Source of the DNA: Escherichia coli
Lineage (GTDB): Bacteria > Pseudomonadota > Gammaproteobacteria > Enterobacterales > Enterobacteriaceae
DNA length: 64,000 bases
Direction: 5' to 3' (one strand)
Assembly (NCBI RefSeq): GCF_001677475.2
Contig: NZ_CP015229.1
Below, in pieces: positions 1 through 7,611 of this stretch (positions are counted from its first letter, which is position 1; each line of letters starts with the position of its first letter). The notes under the pieces are model-generated. The model saw only the letters and a list, made by a program, of their open reading frames with translations. It was not told where the DNA came from and did no database searches. The position numbers were made by a program, and so were the translations under genes.

Positions 1-257
1 ATAGCATCAAAATAGCTGTAAACTCCATATGGAGAGTAAATCATTCTGGAAGTGAGTATAAATCCATTTACTGTGGTAAGAATATCATATAAGTCCTGAG
101 TTCTGTGTAGCTTATACACATTAATCAACTCCGGTCGTGGGTAAGCATCATATCTTAATGCACCATGCGCTGAGATAATATTCCTGTAATTTTGTATATT
201 ATATATAATCTGAGTACGTAGAAGAAAACTGTGCCACAATTCATTTTCATATATCAT
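1..257 (-). CDS. Hypothetical protein, N-terminal 85 codons only (continues past window start); first gene downstream of tnsD, candidate cargo or extra targeting gene
   Basis: ATG at 257 preceded by GAGG 5 nt upstream; frame stays open to position 1 (MIYENELWHSFLLRTQIIYNIQNYRN...); AT-rich; no recognisable similarity. Confidence 0.35.
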   Translation of the reverse strand, partial: MIYENELWHSFLLRTQIIYNIQNYRNIISAHGALRYDAYPRPELINVYKLHRTQDLYDILTTVNGFILTSRMIYSPYGVYSYFDA

Positions 258-272
258 ATCAACCTCATTCAA

Positions 273-1826
273 CTACTTAGATTTACTCATATTAATCAAA
301 GCCATAGTAACTGGAAGCTTATCTCTGTTTTTTAATAACCAGCCATGTCCCCCCAGTACAGAATCAAGTCTTGACAGTGACAGTGAGCACTGCCCCTGAG
401 CTAAAAAATTTTTTATTAATGATAATGAAAACTTATCCCTTTCATCCCAATTGACCCTTTTAACATTACAGCGCCGTGATTCCTTTGGTAAATAAAAATC
501 AAGCCATTGGCTTTCAAATCTGTTTAGCCAGAAAAAACTTGCATAACAATTCGCCCTGACTACTTTTCGAGTCACAGGACCAGTGAGGCCATGCATGAAC
601 CGCAGGATTTTTTGTTTATGACGTCGTCTTAAAGAGTCTCTTTTACATTTTTTACGCCATGAACATAATCCATAAAATGAAGAAATCACCGATGAAACAC
701 TCCCTTCCGATAAGGAGTTTTTCTTTGCTATTGATGCTAAACTAAACCCTCTCACAGCCATGGATTTAATAAGGAACTCAGTTAATATGTTTATTTTAAT
801 GCTACACTTATAATTCTTTACATACTTTTTATGGATTACTCCTTTAATAAAACATCTACTCTTGTTAAGTTCCTTAGCAAGAGAATTAATACTGTTATGT
901 TTTTCACTCAGGAGGCAAAACTGGGCTGTATCATCATCAAAAGCGATGCTCTTTGATTTTTTATGGATATCGGCATGTACTGGCCATGTTATTCTTAACA
1001 AACAATAGCACAGTAACAGATGCTTTGTTGGATGCTGGCATGATTGATTCCTGAGTAAAGGCTCCCAGTAGTGATAATCCGAAATGGATTCAGGCAAAAT
1101 TGCTGAAGAACCCGAATCTAATAACCTACATTTCGCATAAACATGTGAATAAAAAACCCCTTTTTTTATATTTCCTGATACTGATAATAAATTAAGTTGT
1201 TTCAGTATATCCATGTAATCAGGATGATTTGCATCTCCCCTTCGGATCATATTTATAAATTCGTAGCAAAATTTAGCAAAATCGAATTCAAACTCAGTAC
1301 TCAGATGTTCAATATATGAAACCGGGGGCATCAGCCCTTTGCGAATATGTGGCGAAGGAGGAACACAGATGCTTTCAAGTAATATCTGATGTCGATAGCA
1401 GGTCGTAATCCCCCGAAGTTGATGAAGAAGATGCCAGTATGTAACACCATGATGGTACGCATCTTCACGTGCACAAACCGGACAAAATTTTAAAACAGTC
1501 TGTAGCCCGGAGGAGAAATTACTAAGACGGCACAACCGATTTAGTCTGCCCGGTGTCGTTCTCAAATCCATAATTTCTTTGCGGCTGGATGGCAGGGCCC
1601 AGGAAAAAAGAGGGAGCAATGTCTGTTCATACAAGAGTTGCTCTGCACTCTCTGACGTATGAAGAGAAATATCGTTTAATCCGGAACTGAGTATTGGGTG
1701 TACGCTAACATCAGATTTTCCAAAAAGGATTTGTAACATGGTAGAAGGAGACATACCATACACAGTAACTGACCGACATATACGGCTAAACAAGGTTTCA
1801 TCAGGTAAAACAGGAAGTAGAATCAT
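273..1826 (-). CDS. tnsD: Tn7-like target-site selector TnsD/TniQ
   Basis: N-terminus aligns with Tn7 TnsD; CxxC...C..H zinc-finger-like segment (FCPVCAREDAYHHGVTYWH...CYRH). ATG at 1826 has a GAGGTGGG RBS; the ORF-track start at 1844 is a TTG. Confidence 0.8.
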   Translation of the reverse strand: MILLPVLPDETLFSRICRSVTVYGMSPSTMLQILFGKSDVSVHPILSSGLNDISLHTSESAEQLLYEQTLLPLFSWALPSSRKEIMDLRTTPGRLNRLCRLSNFSSGLQTVLKFCPVCAREDAYHHGVTYWHLLHQLRGITTCYRHQILLESICVPPSPHIRKGLMPPVSYIEHLSTEFEFDFAKFCYEFINMIRRGDANHPDYMDILKQLNLLSVSGNIKKGVFYSHVYAKCRLLDSGSSAILPESISDYHYWEPLLRNQSCQHPTKHLLLCYCLLRITWPVHADIHKKSKSIAFDDDTAQFCLLSEKHNSINSLAKELNKSRCFIKGVIHKKYVKNYKCSIKINILTEFLIKSMAVRGFSLASIAKKNSLSEGSVSSVISSFYGLCSWRKKCKRDSLRRRHKQKILRFMHGLTGPVTRKVVRANCYASFFWLNRFESQWLDFYLPKESRRCNVKRVNWDERDKFSLSLIKNFLAQGQCSLSLSRLDSVLGGHGWLLKNRDKLPVTMALINMSKSK

Positions 1827-1868
1827 TCGCCCACCTCTCAGCAACCACTCTGAACAATAAATTCAGTA

Positions 1869-3314
1869 TTACAATTCATTAAGTGGGTCTGTATTTAACA
1901 GACCGCAACGCTGAAGCGATGAGTAGGTTTCGTTGTTATCAGCAGCCCTGCTGATAATACGCTCCCGATCGAAAGATATGATTTTACTTTCGAAATTTTG
2001 CATAGCCTCATCAATTTTTTGTGCAAATTCTTTATGCTGTGGCCTGTCAATATCTCCAGGAATCAGAGCCTTCGCGTGCCTGTCGGCAGTAAAATCCGTT
2101 GAGGCTTCGCCTGCATGAGATACAGAGCAATATTTATCATCATACTCACCCACAGCTCCAGGTATCAAAGCCTCCTGATACTCCTCCGTATGACTGGCGA
2201 GCACCGGTACAGAAGACGACAACACTACACTACTGATCAGTTCATTGCCGCTTCCAATAACTTTTAATTGTGCCCTGCGATAAATCATCTGAGCCAGTCC
2301 GATGTTACCTTTAGATAAAACGAAAAGTTTTTCATTAAGCTCATCACTTAACGGAGTTTCAATATTTGTCCATTGTAATGGCCATAAATAATGAATAAAC
2401 GACTGCCAGTCCTGTGAGTCATACCTGACATTGAGAATATTCATATAACCACCCGATTCCGCTCGTCTGGCAATACGCATTTTTCTGGCCAGTGTTTCAT
2501 CAAAAGGGGGGTTTCCACAAAAAACCATTGATACACCCATTGAATCTACAATTTCATGAAGAAAATCAATGAGTTTATTTTCACCGCCCGTTCTGGAAAA
2601 TTTCAGCCGCTGCATTTCATCAATAACAAGAATACCCAAAAACGATGATTTAATTCTCTGCGCTATCTGCCTCGCCAGAGGACCATTCCTGATCTCTGAT
2701 GTAGTTCGTTCGATGCCGCTAGCATCATCTAACTTTAGAAGAATTTCTTCGCAAAGGTCTCTGACACTGGAGTTGTACGGACAATTAATCTTTAACCACA
2801 CGATTTGCTTGCTTAGCCCGGGAAAAGCACCTTTATAACTACTGTGCTCAATGACCTGGGGAAAGTAGTCCATAATTTGCTCAATCATGGTGGTTTTTCC
2901 GGAGCCACTCATCCCGACTATCGTAATAGTTTCAGCCTGAGACTTAAAATACCCGCTATCTGGCTCTATGTCAGGTCGCTCGTTACCATAGTAATGCAGG
3001 TACTGAACAGTACCACTTTTTAAAGGATTTCGGGCAGCATAACTTTCCCTCAAAGCCCGGTAAATCATTCTGTAAGCTTCGATAAGATTCGTTTGTGGAC
3101 ATCGAAATTTCTTTATCCGATCGACATACTGCTCCCTGATTTTAGCAGGAGCAGTCCAGCGAATATCTTCGTCAATTTCAGGAAAGTAACTCATTTCAAA
3201 AAACACTTCATCATCGGAAAGCGCTTCAGGAAGTGCCTCAATTAAGGGATTGCCCCGATATTCAGGCAAGCCCGGCTCTTTATAAATTGCTGAGACGCTC
3301 CGTAACATATTCAT
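1869..3314 (-). CDS. tnsC: Tn7-like transposition regulator TnsC (AAA+ ATPase)
   Basis: Walker A GMSGSGKTT; blocks matching Tn7 TnsC (YRGNPLIEALPE; LGILVIDEMQRL..SRTGG); ATGA overlap with tnsB stop. Confidence 0.9.
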   Translation of the reverse strand: MNMLRSVSAIYKEPGLPEYRGNPLIEALPEALSDDEVFFEMSYFPEIDEDIRWTAPAKIREQYVDRIKKFRCPQTNLIEAYRMIYRALRESYAARNPLKSGTVQYLHYYGNERPDIEPDSGYFKSQAETITIVGMSGSGKTTMIEQIMDYFPQVIEHSSYKGAFPGLSKQIVWLKINCPYNSSVRDLCEEILLKLDDASGIERTTSEIRNGPLARQIAQRIKSSFLGILVIDEMQRLKFSRTGGENKLIDFLHEIVDSMGVSMVFCGNPPFDETLARKMRIARRAESGGYMNILNVRYDSQDWQSFIHYLWPLQWTNIETPLSDELNEKLFVLSKGNIGLAQMIYRRAQLKVIGSGNELISSVVLSSSVPVLASHTEEYQEALIPGAVGEYDDKYCSVSHAGEASTDFTADRHAKALIPGDIDRPQHKEFAQKIDEAMQNFESKIISFDRERIISRAADNNETYSSLQRCGLLNTDPLNEL

Positions 3315-5437
3315 TTTTCTGCGTCCTCTTGTTTTTTCTTAGCGTTTAACCATCGCTGTTTTTCTTCACGGCCAGGCAAAAGCAGAATATTACTGGATGA
3401 AGGAAGTACAGGTTCATTTTTTTCATTAGGCAGATTTGTACGCCCTAATAGGTCCAGTTCAGCTTTTCTGTTCCGCCTGATATCTTTACCATGCACCCGG
3501 CGGGGATCAGAAATATCGTTCAGGCGTTCAATACCTTGCCTGTTGATTTTATCCTTAACTTTACTATTGTTAAAAACATTCAGTGTGAATGCATTTATTT
3601 CTTTTTGCGTATCTACCCAGTCGGCCATAACATCTGTATCAAGATGAGCTTTACCTTTAAATACATCTCTTTTTTTGAGTAGATAATGCTTTCTGAAGAC
3701 ACTATTTTTATCGAATCTTACGTACAAATAATCTACGCAATTATCATCAATTCTTGCTTCACAGGAGGTTCGTCCGAATACTCTTGCTGCTGAAGCAATG
3801 TCAGGATCGCATTCATAAAATAAATTATTATACTGAATTCCACCGGCTGTAATATTTGCTGTCACGGGGATTAACAAACGAGCAATGACTTCATCTGCTG
3901 TAACGACTCTTCCGCTGAACCGTCCTTGCTTTACGCTAATCATCCAGCTGTTTTTTGGCGAAATAATGAGATCATGTTCAATCAACAATGGATTAATATA
4001 AGCCAACTCCTCATACGTTCTTTGATTATGTGCAAGGATTTCCCGAATCAGCACTGAGGTGACCTCCTGAATCGTTAAACAGGCTCTGGATTGCGGTGTT
4101 GGTTCTCCTTTAACAATTTTGCCTCTTCGCGTTGCTCCTGTAAGCTCATGAATAGCTTCATCATTTAAAATCCCGAAACAACGCTCAACAATACTCTTTC
4201 TGTCCCCTCTGCCAACCGGTGCAAACTCAAGTTTAGTCAGAGGAGTCATCTTATCTTGAGGTTTAAGACCAATCATCTCTCCATTATCGCACATAAGTGT
4301 TAATGGTATATGAGAACAAGGCCATTCATCTTCATTAATAGAAACACCAAATATTCTACAGTATTCTTTTTTTGGCATAAAGCAATTTGCCAACGCTTGC
4401 CGGGCCGCTCGCCAGGAAGCATGATACAAAGAAACATGAAGACCAACAATCATCCTTGAAGCACGATCCACTACTGTATAAATAGTTGGTCGGCCAATAA
4501 CTTTACGCCTGTTTAAGCTTGAAACAAGGTGCACATCAGCTACAGTTGAGTCTATTTCAAAAACATCACCCGGCAATACGGTCGTATTAGCGGCACTCCC
4601 CAGAAGGCCACGCATCTTGAGGGCTATTTCTTTTTTAGAGTTTTTCTTATTTATAGAGAACTCTTTTGAAAACAACTTTCTATTCCAGTAAGTAAATTGT
4701 TTTAAAGAAGGAATGTAGGGAGCCCTGTTTTCAGCGTTTGCTTTCTTTATTTCATCCTTGAAATATAATTCAATGTGTCTTACCAGCGTTTTCTTTATCG
4801 TTTCCCCATGAGTTTTGTAATGAAACCTAGTTAGGGACTTTTTGATGTTTTCAATATCCCCTTCATTAAGGATATAAACTTTCGAACGTATATTGGGTAA
4901 TACTCTGTTTTTCTTTGCATTCCCGAGCTTAACTTCATGTCTGATTCTACTCTTACCTGCAGCACCGCAGTTCGGGTATGCGGGTAGCAAAGCATATATA
5001 TCCTGTCCATGTTTCCAGTAAAGAGTTAGAAGCGTCCTGATTGTACGTTGTGGGATTTGTTTTTTTCTGGAGTACTCTGTTAACAAATGTGATTTTTTAT
5101 GAATCGCATAATCAAATACGAATATTTTATCCTCTACAAGTTCTTTAATAATCTTATAGTTTACATCCCGTCGCTTTCTGTCTTCATTATTTATTTTTCT
5201 CTCATCAATCAACATATATGATGGGGGTGTATATTTCTTATGGGTTATTCTTTGCGAGTCCACACCATATGTAAATTGTGAAAGTGAGAATGGAATTGGT
5301 TTACTCGTTCTTTCTTTTTTTATTTCAAATAAAATCAACAAATCGGTATCTCTGTCAAAATCCAGAACGCGATAAAGCCCATCAGATAGCACGTCACTGT
5401 CGTGAGATTGCCATACTGAATTTCTAATAATATCCAT
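3311..5437 (-). CDS. tnsB: Tn7-like transposase TnsB (DDE/RNase H-fold)
   Basis: 708 aa; core similar to Tn7 TnsB (IGRPTIYTVVDRASRMIVG vs IGRPTLYIVIDVFSRMITG); overlaps tnsA 3' end by 14 nt. Confidence 0.9.
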   Translation of the reverse strand: MDIIRNSVWQSHDSDVLSDGLYRVLDFDRDTDLLILFEIKKERTSKPIPFSLSQFTYGVDSQRITHKKYTPPSYMLIDERKINNEDRKRRDVNYKIIKELVEDKIFVFDYAIHKKSHLLTEYSRKKQIPQRTIRTLLTLYWKHGQDIYALLPAYPNCGAAGKSRIRHEVKLGNAKKNRVLPNIRSKVYILNEGDIENIKKSLTRFHYKTHGETIKKTLVRHIELYFKDEIKKANAENRAPYIPSLKQFTYWNRKLFSKEFSINKKNSKKEIALKMRGLLGSAANTTVLPGDVFEIDSTVADVHLVSSLNRRKVIGRPTIYTVVDRASRMIVGLHVSLYHASWRAARQALANCFMPKKEYCRIFGVSINEDEWPCSHIPLTLMCDNGEMIGLKPQDKMTPLTKLEFAPVGRGDRKSIVERCFGILNDEAIHELTGATRRGKIVKGEPTPQSRACLTIQEVTSVLIREILAHNQRTYEELAYINPLLIEHDLIISPKNSWMISVKQGRFSGRVVTADEVIARLLIPVTANITAGGIQYNNLFYECDPDIASAARVFGRTSCEARIDDNCVDYLYVRFDKNSVFRKHYLLKKRDVFKGKAHLDTDVMADWVDTQKEINAFTLNVFNNSKVKDKINRQGIERLNDISDPRRVHGKDIRRNRKAELDLLGRTNLPNEKNEPVLPSSSNILLLPGREEKQRWLNAKKKQEDAEK

Positions 5438-6266
5438 TTGCGTTCAGCCCTATGCAGTAACCATTGGAAATTATTTTTATCAGACCTGTTTCGAGAATTG
5501 GATAAGATAGATCCACATTTATCATTTTTAACCCAATAATTGCCTGCAATAACATGATTGCTTCTTGTTCATCGACATCAAAGATTGATGAGATCATCGC
5601 GCGTAGTTCCACAATCGGATAAACATCCGGCTTAAGCCTCCATAAAATTTTATCAAGCGGATATTTATCAAAAAACTCAGACCCATTTCTCAGCACCGAG
5701 GTAGCCCAACATATGTTCTGCCCCGTGACATGATTCAGTTCCGAACCAGTATAGATTTGGAACTCAACATCAATCAGTTGCCAAAACATTCTCTCTATCT
5801 CAAGCTTTTCTGCTTCGCGTTTAGGTATGCTTTCGTTTTGCTTTACTGCAATTGCTTTATACCGAAGCCCCCCTCCCGGCATTCTCAGGGTCAGCAAGAA
5901 ATCAGTTGTCATAACATTCAGGACATCGGCTGGTACGCCTCTGACTCCCCTGACAAGCGGGTGCTGCACATCTAAGTGATTGGCTATCTGATGGGTGAGC
6001 AGTAGAGGTATGAGTGGGAATTGTTCGCGGATATCGATCACCAAGTCATTAAACTCAGCCAAGTAGAAAAAGTTACTTTCGACAGAAGAAAAGAAATGGT
6101 GATTCCGAAACGTCTTAAGGCCAAAGACTATCGAACGGTTTCCATGGGATCTAACGTCCTGAGCTCTAAGCCAGGGTTGATAACTTTGCCCATAGCCCAA
6201 CCCTATGCCGTCACCTAGCGCATTTTCATAATCCTGATAGGATTTAAGACGCCTGCCCCTAGCCAT
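5424..6266 (-). CDS. tnsA: Tn7-like transposase subunit TnsA (endonuclease-like)
   Basis: Matches Tn7 TnsA (YQPWLRAQDV...IDIREQFPLIP; KLEIERMFWQ). ATG at 6266 gives the same N-terminal length as Tn7 TnsA; the ORF-track start at 6278 is a GTG. Confidence 0.9.
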   Translation of the reverse strand: MARGRRLKSYQDYENALGDGIGLGYGQSYQPWLRAQDVRSHGNRSIVFGLKTFRNHHFFSSVESNFFYLAEFNDLVIDIREQFPLIPLLLTHQIANHLDVQHPLVRGVRGVPADVLNVMTTDFLLTLRMPGGGLRYKAIAVKQNESIPKREAEKLEIERMFWQLIDVEFQIYTGSELNHVTGQNICWATSVLRNGSEFFDKYPLDKILWRLKPDVYPIVELRAMISSIFDVDEQEAIMLLQAIIGLKMINVDLSYPILETGLIKIISNGYCIGLNANGYY

Positions 6267-6278
6267 GATCGTACCCAC

Positions 6279-6405
6279 AAAACATCATTGATACGTACCT
6301 GCATGAGTGTTTAATAGTCTACAACCCTATAACCACACATATAGTAAGTATACAACATTAGCGTCATTTTTTGAGAGTGGTTACAACTTTAGTGCTTAGG
6401 GCACA
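6279..6405 (-). repeat. Transposon right end: array of imperfect ~20-30 bp direct repeats carrying GTTGT(A) cores (putative TnsB-binding sites), terminus TGT at 6405 or 6385
   Basis: Minus-strand reading from the yhiN stop: AAAGTTGTGCC..AAAGTTGTAACC..AATGTTGTATAC..GGGTTGTAGAC..TTTTGTGGG; analogous to the Tn7-R site organisation. Confidence 0.55.
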
Positions 6406-6408
6406 ACT

Positions 6409-7611
6409 TTATTGTTTTTGAACAGCAATCAAATCCTGCGCACAAGCCCACGCACTCGACCACGCCCACTGGAAATTATAGCCCCCCAGCCAACCGGTGA
6501 CGTCCATCACTTCGCCGATGAAGTACAGCCCAGGCACTTTGCGCGCTTCCATCGTCCGTGAAGAGAGTTCGTTGGTGTCCACGCCGCCGAGCGTCACTTC
6601 GGCAGTGCGATAGCCTTCAGTGCCGTTGGGTTGTACGCGCCAGTCGGTCAATGTGCTAATCAGTGCCTGTTGGTCACGCACGTTGAGCTGTTTTAGCGAG
6701 ACATCCGGGATTTGCCCGAGTTGTTGTAAACGTTCAACCAACCGCTTCGGTAGATGAACCGCCAGTGTGTTTTTCAGGCTCTGATTCGGATGTGCATTAC
6801 GCTGCTCATTCAGGAAGGTTTCGAGGTCCACATCAGGTAGCAGATTGATACTGACAAATTCACCCGGTTGCCAGTAGCTGGAAATTTGCAACACCGCCGG
6901 TCCAGATAAACCGCGGTGGGTGAAGAGTAAGTTCTCACGGAAAACGGTGCCGTTTTCAGCGGTAATCACGGAAGGCACCGCCACGCCCGCCAGCACCTGT
7001 AACTCTTCGAGCAACGGTTTATGCAGAGTGAATGGCACCAGGCCCGCGCGGGTCGGCAGCACGTTGAGGCCAAATTGTTCGGCAATCTTATAACCAAACG
7101 GCGACGCGCCCAGCCCTGGCATTGACAGTCCACCGGTCGCGATGACCAGCTTTTCGCAACCGACAGTCATGCCGTTCAGTTCAAGCGTGAAGCCTGTTTC
7201 ATCCTTCGCCACACTCAGCACTTCGCTACGCAATCTGAAGGTCACATTGCCCTTCTCGCACTCATCCACCAGCATGTCGACAATCTGCTGCGCGGAGTCA
7301 TCGCAGAAGAGTTGTCCTAACGTTTTCTCGTGCCAGGCGATGCCGTGTTTATTGACCAGATCAATGAAATCCCACTGGGTAAAACGCGCGAGTGCAGATT
7401 TACAAAAATGCGGATTCTGGCTCAGATAAGCGCCCGGTTCGACATAAAGGTTGGTAAAGTTGCAGCGCCCACCGCCAGACATGAGGATTTTGCGCCCTGG
7501 TTTTTTACCATTATCGATCAGCAGAACCCGGCGTCCTGCCTGACCTGCCAGCGCAGAACAGAACATACCCGCCGCACCAGCGCCTATAATAATGGCATCA
7601 AACCTTTCCAC
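6409..7611 (-). CDS. yhiN: NAD(FAD)-utilising dehydrogenase YhiN (flavoprotein, HI0933 family)
   Basis: 400 aa, MERFDAIIIGAGAAG... dinucleotide-binding motif; GTG start with GGAG RBS. Confidence 0.9.
   Translation of the reverse strand: MERFDAIIIGAGAAGMFCSALAGQAGRRVLLIDNGKKPGRKILMSGGGRCNFTNLYVEPGAYLSQNPHFCKSALARFTQWDFIDLVNKHGIAWHEKTLGQLFCDDSAQQIVDMLVDECEKGNVTFRLRSEVLSVAKDETGFTLELNGMTVGCEKLVIATGGLSMPGLGASPFGYKIAEQFGLNVLPTRAGLVPFTLHKPLLEELQVLAGVAVPSVITAENGTVFRENLLFTHRGLSGPAVLQISSYWQPGEFVSINLLPDVDLETFLNEQRNAHPNQSLKNTLAVHLPKRLVERLQQLGQIPDVSLKQLNVRDQQALISTLTDWRVQPNGTEGYRTAEVTLGGVDTNELSSRTMEARKVPGLYFIGEVMDVTGWLGGYNFQWAWSSAWACAQDLIAVQKQ

Follow-up and report, generated by a model that had tools for sequence, protein, structure and literature searches.

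The open reading frame cut by the edge of the Escherichia coli sequence analysed here (64,000 nt of contig NZ_CP015229.1, hereafter the window) is very probably a core gene of a Tn7-like transposon and a member of the TniQ family. The window holds the core of a Tn6230-family element inserted in the 3′ end of the chromosomal gene yhiN, and this family inserts, precisely to the nucleotide, at two unrelated places: within the 3′ end of yhiN on chromosomes and at one intergenic site on IncHI1 and IncHI2 conjugative plasmids. Taken as a whole, we lean towards a reading in which this fifth core gene encodes a divergent TniQ that serves a second targeting pathway.

The start of the gene can be read directly. 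On the minus strand, the stop codon of tnsD (TAG, 275-273) is followed by a Shine-Dalgarno-like GAGG (263-266), which lies 5 nt upstream of an ATG at 257-255, leaving 15 nt between the tnsD stop and the ORF start and no terminator-like site in that gap. From the ATG, 85 codons run without a stop to position 1, so the window contains the 5′ part of the gene (1-257, minus strand; 85 of 308 codons) and the remainder lies past its edge. An earlier note on this DNA had proposed this GAGG-ATG start and a frame open to position 1; both are borne out, and the translation is identical to the one given there. At the local base composition, the probability of an 85-codon open frame arising by chance is about 0.0015, and that of the full 308-codon frame about 6e-11. 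With 34.5% GC over its full length, the ORF is the most AT-rich gene of the transposition module (tnsD 38.0, tnsB 38.1, tnsC 42.5 and tnsA 43.2%, against 54.4% for yhiN). The same note had called it AT-rich and unlike the backbone genes, which is right as to rank, but tnsA to tnsD are also low in GC and the difference is marginal; the composition carries on the transposon's own rather than departing from it.

The full gene was retrieved from a 100%-identical E. coli genome, NZ_AP045170.1, where it spans 308 codons (L001:21644-22570, WP_001371351.1); PGAP picks the same start there and names the product a hypothetical protein. Over its first 1900 bases the window matches six complete E. coli genomes at 99.9-100%; in one of them, NZ_CM129038.1, an IS3 element splits tnsD into pieces annotated as 'TnsD family' and 'TniQ family'. 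A relative that is roughly 73% identical in DNA over the same region occurs in about 678 other E. coli records. It is Tn6230, an element at yhiN-yhiM with the sil/pco genes for resistance to copper and silver, whose orthologue of the small TniQ is likewise 308 aa long, is 60% identical and starts 11 nt past tnsD. The 308-aa frame is therefore intact in elements whose small TniQ diverges by 40%. An exhaustive profile search returned 120 representative relatives, mostly of 300-420 aa and mostly matching end to end. A word-indexed protein search found close relatives only, every one of them 'hypothetical', and repeating it with the family alignment gave nothing further. At 308 aa and conserved, the complete frame is not the short, unconserved ORF that would have refuted the earlier note.

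Several comparisons place this protein in the TniQ family, if at its margins. Its only Pfam match is to TniQ (PF06527) and is weak (i-E 1.6e-4, 22.8 bits; residues 3-143 against model positions 7-141 of 142). The same model matches 9 of 48 family members at E≤1e-3 and 30 of 48 at E≤0.1 (best 8.3e-8); in the precomputed Pfam scans of the databases, family members carry no domain, and NCBIfam assigns no family to the ORF or to TnsD. Across 48 aligned sequences, whose identity to the query is 15-72%, residues E6, R14, C111, C114, G123, W131, C137, H140 and C192 are invariant, and C288, C291 and C299 nearly so. Four of the invariant positions (C111, C114, C137 and H140) form a CxxC...CxxH (CCCH) zinc finger that is placed after the N-terminal helical domain and aligns with the fingers of TnsD and VchTniQ. 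BLASTP aligns it directly with the finger of the adjacent TnsD. Searched against PDB sequences, the family profile has as its top matches Tn7 TnsD (8glu, E 0.003) and VchTniQ (6pif, E 0.067), with alignments that span an N-terminal (D/N)E-x3-S-x3-R motif and the zinc finger; phmmer with the single protein gave no match in PDB. Comparing the small TniQ family with the co-resident TnsD family by hhalign gave a probability of 92.6% (E 4.7e-7, 138 columns), the likeness being confined to the first ~150 residues.

The predicted structure tells a similar story. An AF2 model (pLDDT 81.6, pTM 0.71) runs from a helical domain through the zinc finger and a connector helix to a five-helix domain and a short beta/Cys tail, a fold like that of the solved TniQ and TnsD N-terminal regions. 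A Foldseek search of the model against PDB gave no match; against AFDB50, full-length matches extend down to 1e-13, several of them named TniQ and others TnsD-domain proteins. A tnsC/tniB gene lies in the neighbourhood in the window and in L001, L002, L004, L006-L008, L010, L020 and L022. The protein consists of an N-terminal TniQ domain with the E-x3-S-x3-R motif, a finger, a connector helix, a second helical domain and a Cys-rich tail (C192, C288, C291 and C299). Pfam did not find the TnsD C-terminal domain (PF15978) or a helix-turn-helix extension, and at 308 aa the protein falls below 400; neither an integrase-like domain nor a recognisable DNA-binding domain was found in it. Together with the lack of similarity to TnsE in sequence or fold (Pfam, PDB), these absences argue for a minimal and highly divergent TniQ-family protein, distinct from TnsD, TnsE and the TnsF of Tn6022. 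The earlier note's impression that the ORF resembles nothing recognisable thus holds for TnsE, an identity it had allowed for, but not for TnsD, whose finger aligns. With the full ORF, the structure prediction and the profile comparison in hand, the match to characterised proteins is at the level of the TniQ family, and the subfamily itself is uncharacterised.

The rest of the transposition module lies upstream on the same strand. In order from the ORF, all on the minus strand, these are tnsD (273-1826; 517 aa from the PGAP start, the longest ORF beginning at 1844), with TniQ and TnsD domains by Pfam on orthologues; tnsC, a TniB-like AAA+ regulator (1869-3314); tnsB, the transposase (3311-5437); and tnsA, the endonuclease subunit (5424-6266). 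The right end of the transposon (6310-6424, minus strand) carries the 22-bp inverted repeat TGTTCAAAAACAATAAAGTTGT at 6424-6403 and four GTTGT-containing repeats, putative TnsB sites, at 6407, 6387, 6356 and 6325. In the complete copy L001 the left end reads ...ACAACTTTATTGGTTCTACACA and the element is 22,546 bp long. The 5-bp target-site duplication ATTGC (6425-6429, minus strand) has its other copy past the left end, outside the window (L001:38023-38027); ATTGC flanks both ends and is single-copy in the empty K-12 site.

The attachment gene yhiN (6409-7611, minus strand), beyond which lies the host gene pitA, marking this DNA as E. coli chromosome, is interrupted within its 3′ end, inside the reading frame and 15 nt ahead of the native stop. 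The last four yhiN codons and the stop are supplied by the transposon terminal repeat (6409-6429), so that the K-12 C-terminus ...QDLIAAKSS is replaced by ...QDLIAVQKQ, each followed by a stop, and YhiN is still 400 aa long. The fixed yhiN 3′ position, the 5-bp duplication, terminal repeats of the form TGT...AATAAAGTTGT and tnsABCD are all those of the Tn6230 family, and the right-end inverted repeat agrees in type with those published for Tn6230 (PMC13049778). In right-end repeat type, yhiN position and gene order, the window element is like Tn6230, the prototype of which is on R478; unlike Tn6230, it belongs to a diverged lineage and carries different cargo. A yhiN junction of the Tn6230 type is present in 647 of 5426 complete E. 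coli genomes (~12%), and chromosomal matches to the tnsD region number 641, so essentially all chromosomal copies are at yhiN, a site at which such copies have been reported before (PMC10121019).

The earlier note had left open whether the ORF was a second target selector or the first gene of a cargo operon, and had described it as cargo-side. Comparison with Tn6230 decides against cargo. By blastn, homology extends from the first base of the right end over element positions 1-7022 (76.9%) and stops 72 nt short of the small TniQ stop codon, beyond which the cargo is wholly different. Since the homology block ends inside the 3′ end of this gene, the small TniQ is the last core gene and not cargo. 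Between the two lineages, dN/dS is about 0.15 for the small TniQ (306 aligned codons), 0.18 for tnsD and about 0.1 for tnsABC, ratios that are rough because dS is saturated, and protein identity is 60% for the small TniQ, 66% for TnsD and 80-88% for TnsABC. The small TniQ gene evolves under purifying selection. Its TniQ homology and its conservation with tnsABCD across differing cargo lend support to the selector alternative.

Among more distant relatives, the association with tnsD varies in form. In a relative at 29% identity (L004) the order tnsC-tnsD-ORF is kept. In one at 25% identity (L006-L008), which also sits in the 3′ end of a yhiN orthologue and whose TnsD is 33% identical, the gene adjoins tnsD but is inverted, so that the two are convergent (L006:10001-12581), which means that not every member of the family can be co-transcribed with tnsD. 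Still more distant members (18-22% identity; P0019, P0022 and P0028) are not all beside tnsABCD in the visible contigs.

On plasmids, the family occupies an IncHI site (L018:4237-4300; L020:2761-2832; L022:9020-9083) that has a DUF6884-gene cluster, or small hypothetical genes in IncHI2, on one side and a DUF4942-like gene opposite. Copies of Tn6230 in IncHI2 plasmids have a small hypothetical gene on one side and the DUF4942 gene on the other, and show the target-site duplication GGTCC. In an S. Derby IncHI1B plasmid the duplication is GGTGG, and the flanks rejoin exactly into the empty site of another IncHI1 plasmid. A window-type element is found in a Salmonella IncHI1A plasmid, with a core module that is 99.93% identical in DNA to that of the window element over 8457 bp; the TnsA, TnsD and ORF protein accessions are the same, and TnsB and TnsC are slightly different. 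Despite its different end sequence, its right junction falls at the identical nucleotide (...GGTGG/TGTTC). The left flank of this copy is rearranged and no duplication is visible, so that the copy may have arrived through replacement by recombination.

The IncHI1 and IncHI2 flanks are homologous (Smith-Waterman score 31, against 8.9±1.5 for shuffles), their insertion points coincide within 1 bp, and in every IncHI case the right end is beside the conserved flank. Small inverted repeats lie in this flank, with their centres about 47-49 bp away from where the element inserts. In IncHI1 these are TAGTAA/TTACTA, nested in GTCATT/AATGAC; in IncHI2 they are TAGTAAAG/CTTTACTA. Between the yhiN flank and the IncHI flanks there is no similarity, with Smith-Waterman scores of 6-8 against about 8±1.3 for shuffles. 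We considered whether the IncHI site might be a cryptic yhiN-like sequence and rejected this, as fixed-offset identity is 0.17-0.26 and local alignment is at the level of shuffles. The IncHI2-type junction is present in 595 plasmid records, and a roughly equal number have the flank but no element; in a spread sample of 60 rows, no transposon end was found in another context. Three or four junction types are documented on IncHI plasmids, and the plasmid insertions may represent few independent events. Laboratory stocks of E. coli J53 document movement between the two sites: in them, Tn7/sil/pco passed from an IncHI2 plasmid into yhiN-yhiM (PMC8417528), and this accounts for the match of J53 to the tnsD region.

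Two further features of these plasmids deserve mention. A longer, near-perfect palindrome, TTAGTCACTAGT...ACTAGAGACTAA (L021:260-320), is found some 300 bp upstream of the insertion site in IncHI2; it has a TTAGTCA motif in common with the att-proximal repeats and is possibly an operator set for one plasmid protein. Separately, fragmented remnants of a homologue of the small TniQ, 26-30% identical, lie beside ISKpn26 in an IncHI1A/IncQ1 plasmid (L011:11028-11627) and an IncFIA/IncQ1 plasmid (L012:11001-11917). They adjoin sucrose/fructan utilisation genes, with no tnsABCD nearby and no IncHI att motif beside them.

How one transposon might address both sites is suggested by its gene content. 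There are two unrelated, precise sites of fixed polarity and two TniQ proteins, with no other conserved gene, which argues for one selector each. TnsD (pI 9.55) is assigned to yhiN because of its long basic C-terminal region (pI 10.3), conserved along with yhiN targeting, and this leaves the small TniQ, mildly basic at pI 8.6, as the candidate for the IncHI site. We infer this division from analogy and from the unrelatedness of the sites, and regard the chances that the small TniQ is the selector specifically for the IncHI site as evenly balanced.

In the scheme that we propose, the small TniQ would be translated from the tnsABCD transcript, as is suggested by the 15-nt gap, its own Shine-Dalgarno sequence and the lack of a terminator-like site between the genes. 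It is predicted to bind TnsC through its TniQ domain, like TnsD and CAST TniQs. TnsABC with TnsD would direct insertion into yhiN, and TnsABC with the small TniQ would direct insertion into IncHI plasmids, ~47 bp to the side of the conserved palindrome and with the right end proximal. The conserved Cys-rich C-terminal domain of the small TniQ may read the IncHI site directly; another option is that the protein docks onto a plasmid- or host-encoded protein bound at the palindrome. A bolder form of this proposal, that a CRISPR-free minimal TniQ without a recognisable DNA-binding extension directs insertion at one fixed IncHI site, we hold only tentatively, as somewhat short of an even chance; recognition would then depend on a new C-terminal zinc domain or on a plasmid-encoded protein on the palindrome ~47 bp away.

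The same observations could be arranged differently. The small TniQ might work together with TnsD, which would need it or be stimulated by it, for example within a hetero-oligomeric TniQ/TnsD selector that acts at yhiN or at both sites; the IncHI site would then be read by TnsD or by the complex. TniQ can dimerise, as the two TniQ monomers in 6pif/6pig illustrate, and the gene accompanies a yhiN-targeting TnsD even where TnsD is 33% and the small TniQ 25% identical; moreover, small TniQ and tnsD evolve at similar rates and their 15-nt spacing suggests co-expression. However, the yhiN and IncHI att flanks lack similarity, which makes a single DNA-reading surface unlikely, and the inversion of the gene relative to tnsD in one relative indicates that strict translational coupling is dispensable. 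As the characterised dual TniQ-TnsD systems also all use separate pathways (PMC10293859, PMC11406308), we consider such a partnership unlikely.

Less likely still, and in our view improbable, is that the small TniQ is a regulatory decoy, deficient in DNA binding, that competes with TnsD for TnsC and thereby throttles or times transposition or adds to target immunity. Such a role would suit a protein that has retained the TniQ domain facing TnsC but not the C-terminal extension of TnsD, and that is no more than mildly basic. It would leave the precise second att site unexplained, however, and the C-terminal half, including C192, C288, C291 and C299, is conserved across the family, which argues for a specific binding function beyond the occupation of TnsC. 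That the gene is a decaying tnsD duplicate or a first cargo gene with no role in transposition fits its 'hypothetical' label in all annotation sources, its AT-richness and the distant homologues without visible tnsABC linkage, but is already largely refuted, and very improbable, given a dN/dS of ~0.15 and a 308-aa frame kept despite 40% divergence, a Tn6230 homology block that ends at the 3′ end of the gene with completely different cargo beyond, and invariant zinc-ligand residues.

Our preferred reading, of a fifth core gene that serves a second targeting pathway, has precedents among known systems. Dual TniQ-TnsD systems number ~1000 loci in which tandem TniQ-domain genes accompany tnsC, one product exceeding 400 aa and the other being much smaller; examples are type I-B1 AvCAST, type I-D CyCAST and Tn7017, and the smaller protein, expected to couple TnsC to a second mode of targeting, is taken to act in an indirect one (PMC10293859). 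For the small TniQs of such loci, action in a second mode has been proposed or shown (PMC10293859, PMC11406308). The module described here has the same arrangement, a TnsD of 517 aa and a small TniQ of 308 aa encoded 15 nt apart, the latter a ~300-aa core-only TniQ (helical domain, finger, connector, second helical domain) in tandem with TnsD. Unlike in the dual-TniQ CASTs, its second target is apparently a single fixed position in the DNA of one family of plasmids, and the annotation of the complete elements L001, L010 and L021 lists neither cas genes nor a CRISPR array. The dual TniQ-TnsD class is already known; this module adds the specific hypothesis of a second protein-guided homing site.

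Like tnsE of Tn7, the fifth gene directly follows tnsD, and its proposed role, transfer onto conjugative plasmids as part of a two-pathway lifestyle, is also similar. TnsE recognises replication structures and the beta-clamp, and its insertions are dispersed; unlike TnsE, to which it has no similarity in sequence or fold, the small TniQ belongs to elements whose plasmid insertions fall at one nucleotide position. The literature on Tn6230 treats the gene unevenly: some papers draw tnsABCDE, with the small TniQ labelled tnsE (as in PMC8417528), and most descriptions give tnsABCD and omit the fifth gene (PMC13049778). A passage in a further source ascribes to Peters et al. 2014 a TnsF-encoding gene of a Tn6230 element (PMC11014353). 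By position, this 'TnsF' gene is most likely the small TniQ gene. The name Tn6230 reportedly goes back to Peters et al. 2014 as well.

Recognition through a plasmid protein has a parallel in Tn5053/Tn402, the 'res-site hunters', in which targeting reportedly depends on the plasmid's own resolvase bound at the res site, a finding credited to Minakhina et al. in 1999. The TniQ of these elements offers a model for a minimal TniQ that reads the IncHI palindrome by way of a plasmid protein, although Tn5053/Tn402 elements, unlike the window element, have no TnsA or TnsD, and the IncHI site is not a known res site. Tn6022 likewise has a short TniQ, which requires a separate DNA-binding selector, TnsF (Orf3). 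Tn5053-type TniQs have been listed as thought to act at plasmid res sites (PMC11406308, Table 1).

The identity of this gene bears on how an abundant class of elements spreads. Elements of the Tn6230 type occupy yhiN in ~12% of complete E. coli genomes and occur on hundreds of IncHI plasmids; their cargo includes genes for resistance to silver and copper, mcr-9, genes for adhesins, and anti-phage systems. A 2024 review listed the molecular details of their targeting as unknown. Finding that the fifth gene is a TniQ paralogue makes this question experimentally tractable. If the proposed scheme is true, the family would have two protein-guided homing sites, yhiN via TnsD and attIncHI via the small TniQ, the latter a sequence-specific substitute for the TnsE pathway, and this would account for the shuttling of sil/pco and mcr-9 islands between IncHI plasmids and enterobacterial chromosomes. 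A small TniQ that reads the IncHI site would also be a compact protein-guided selector, relevant both to plasmid epidemiology and to Tn7-based insertion tools.

Finally, we note several features of the DNA beyond the core module. The 1.1 kb that follows the small TniQ gene contains no annotated gene, and ~1.1 kb downstream lies a gene for an Xre/MbcA/ParS-type antitoxin (L001:23692-23975; L010:13051-13494), intact in the plasmid copy L010 but interrupted in the chromosomal L001, where an IS3-family element has inserted. A conserved helix-turn-helix partner downstream was considered and rejected, since the Tn6230 helix-turn-helix protein and this antitoxin share no similarity; we found no conserved partner gene downstream of the small TniQ, the DNA homology already ending inside the ORF. 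The chromosomal cargo includes tibA, which encodes an autotransporter adhesin/invasin, and its heptosyltransferase gene (L001:27572-32507), so the ETEC-type tib adhesin locus is here the cargo of a Tn7-like transposon. Several IS elements are also part of this copy, along with genes for invertases, recombinases and regulators of the LuxR and CaiF/GrlA types. The IncHI1A plasmid copy instead carries SAVED-domain, ThiF-family adenylyltransferase and Mov34/MPN genes (L010:15386-21301), which look like a CBASS anti-phage system.
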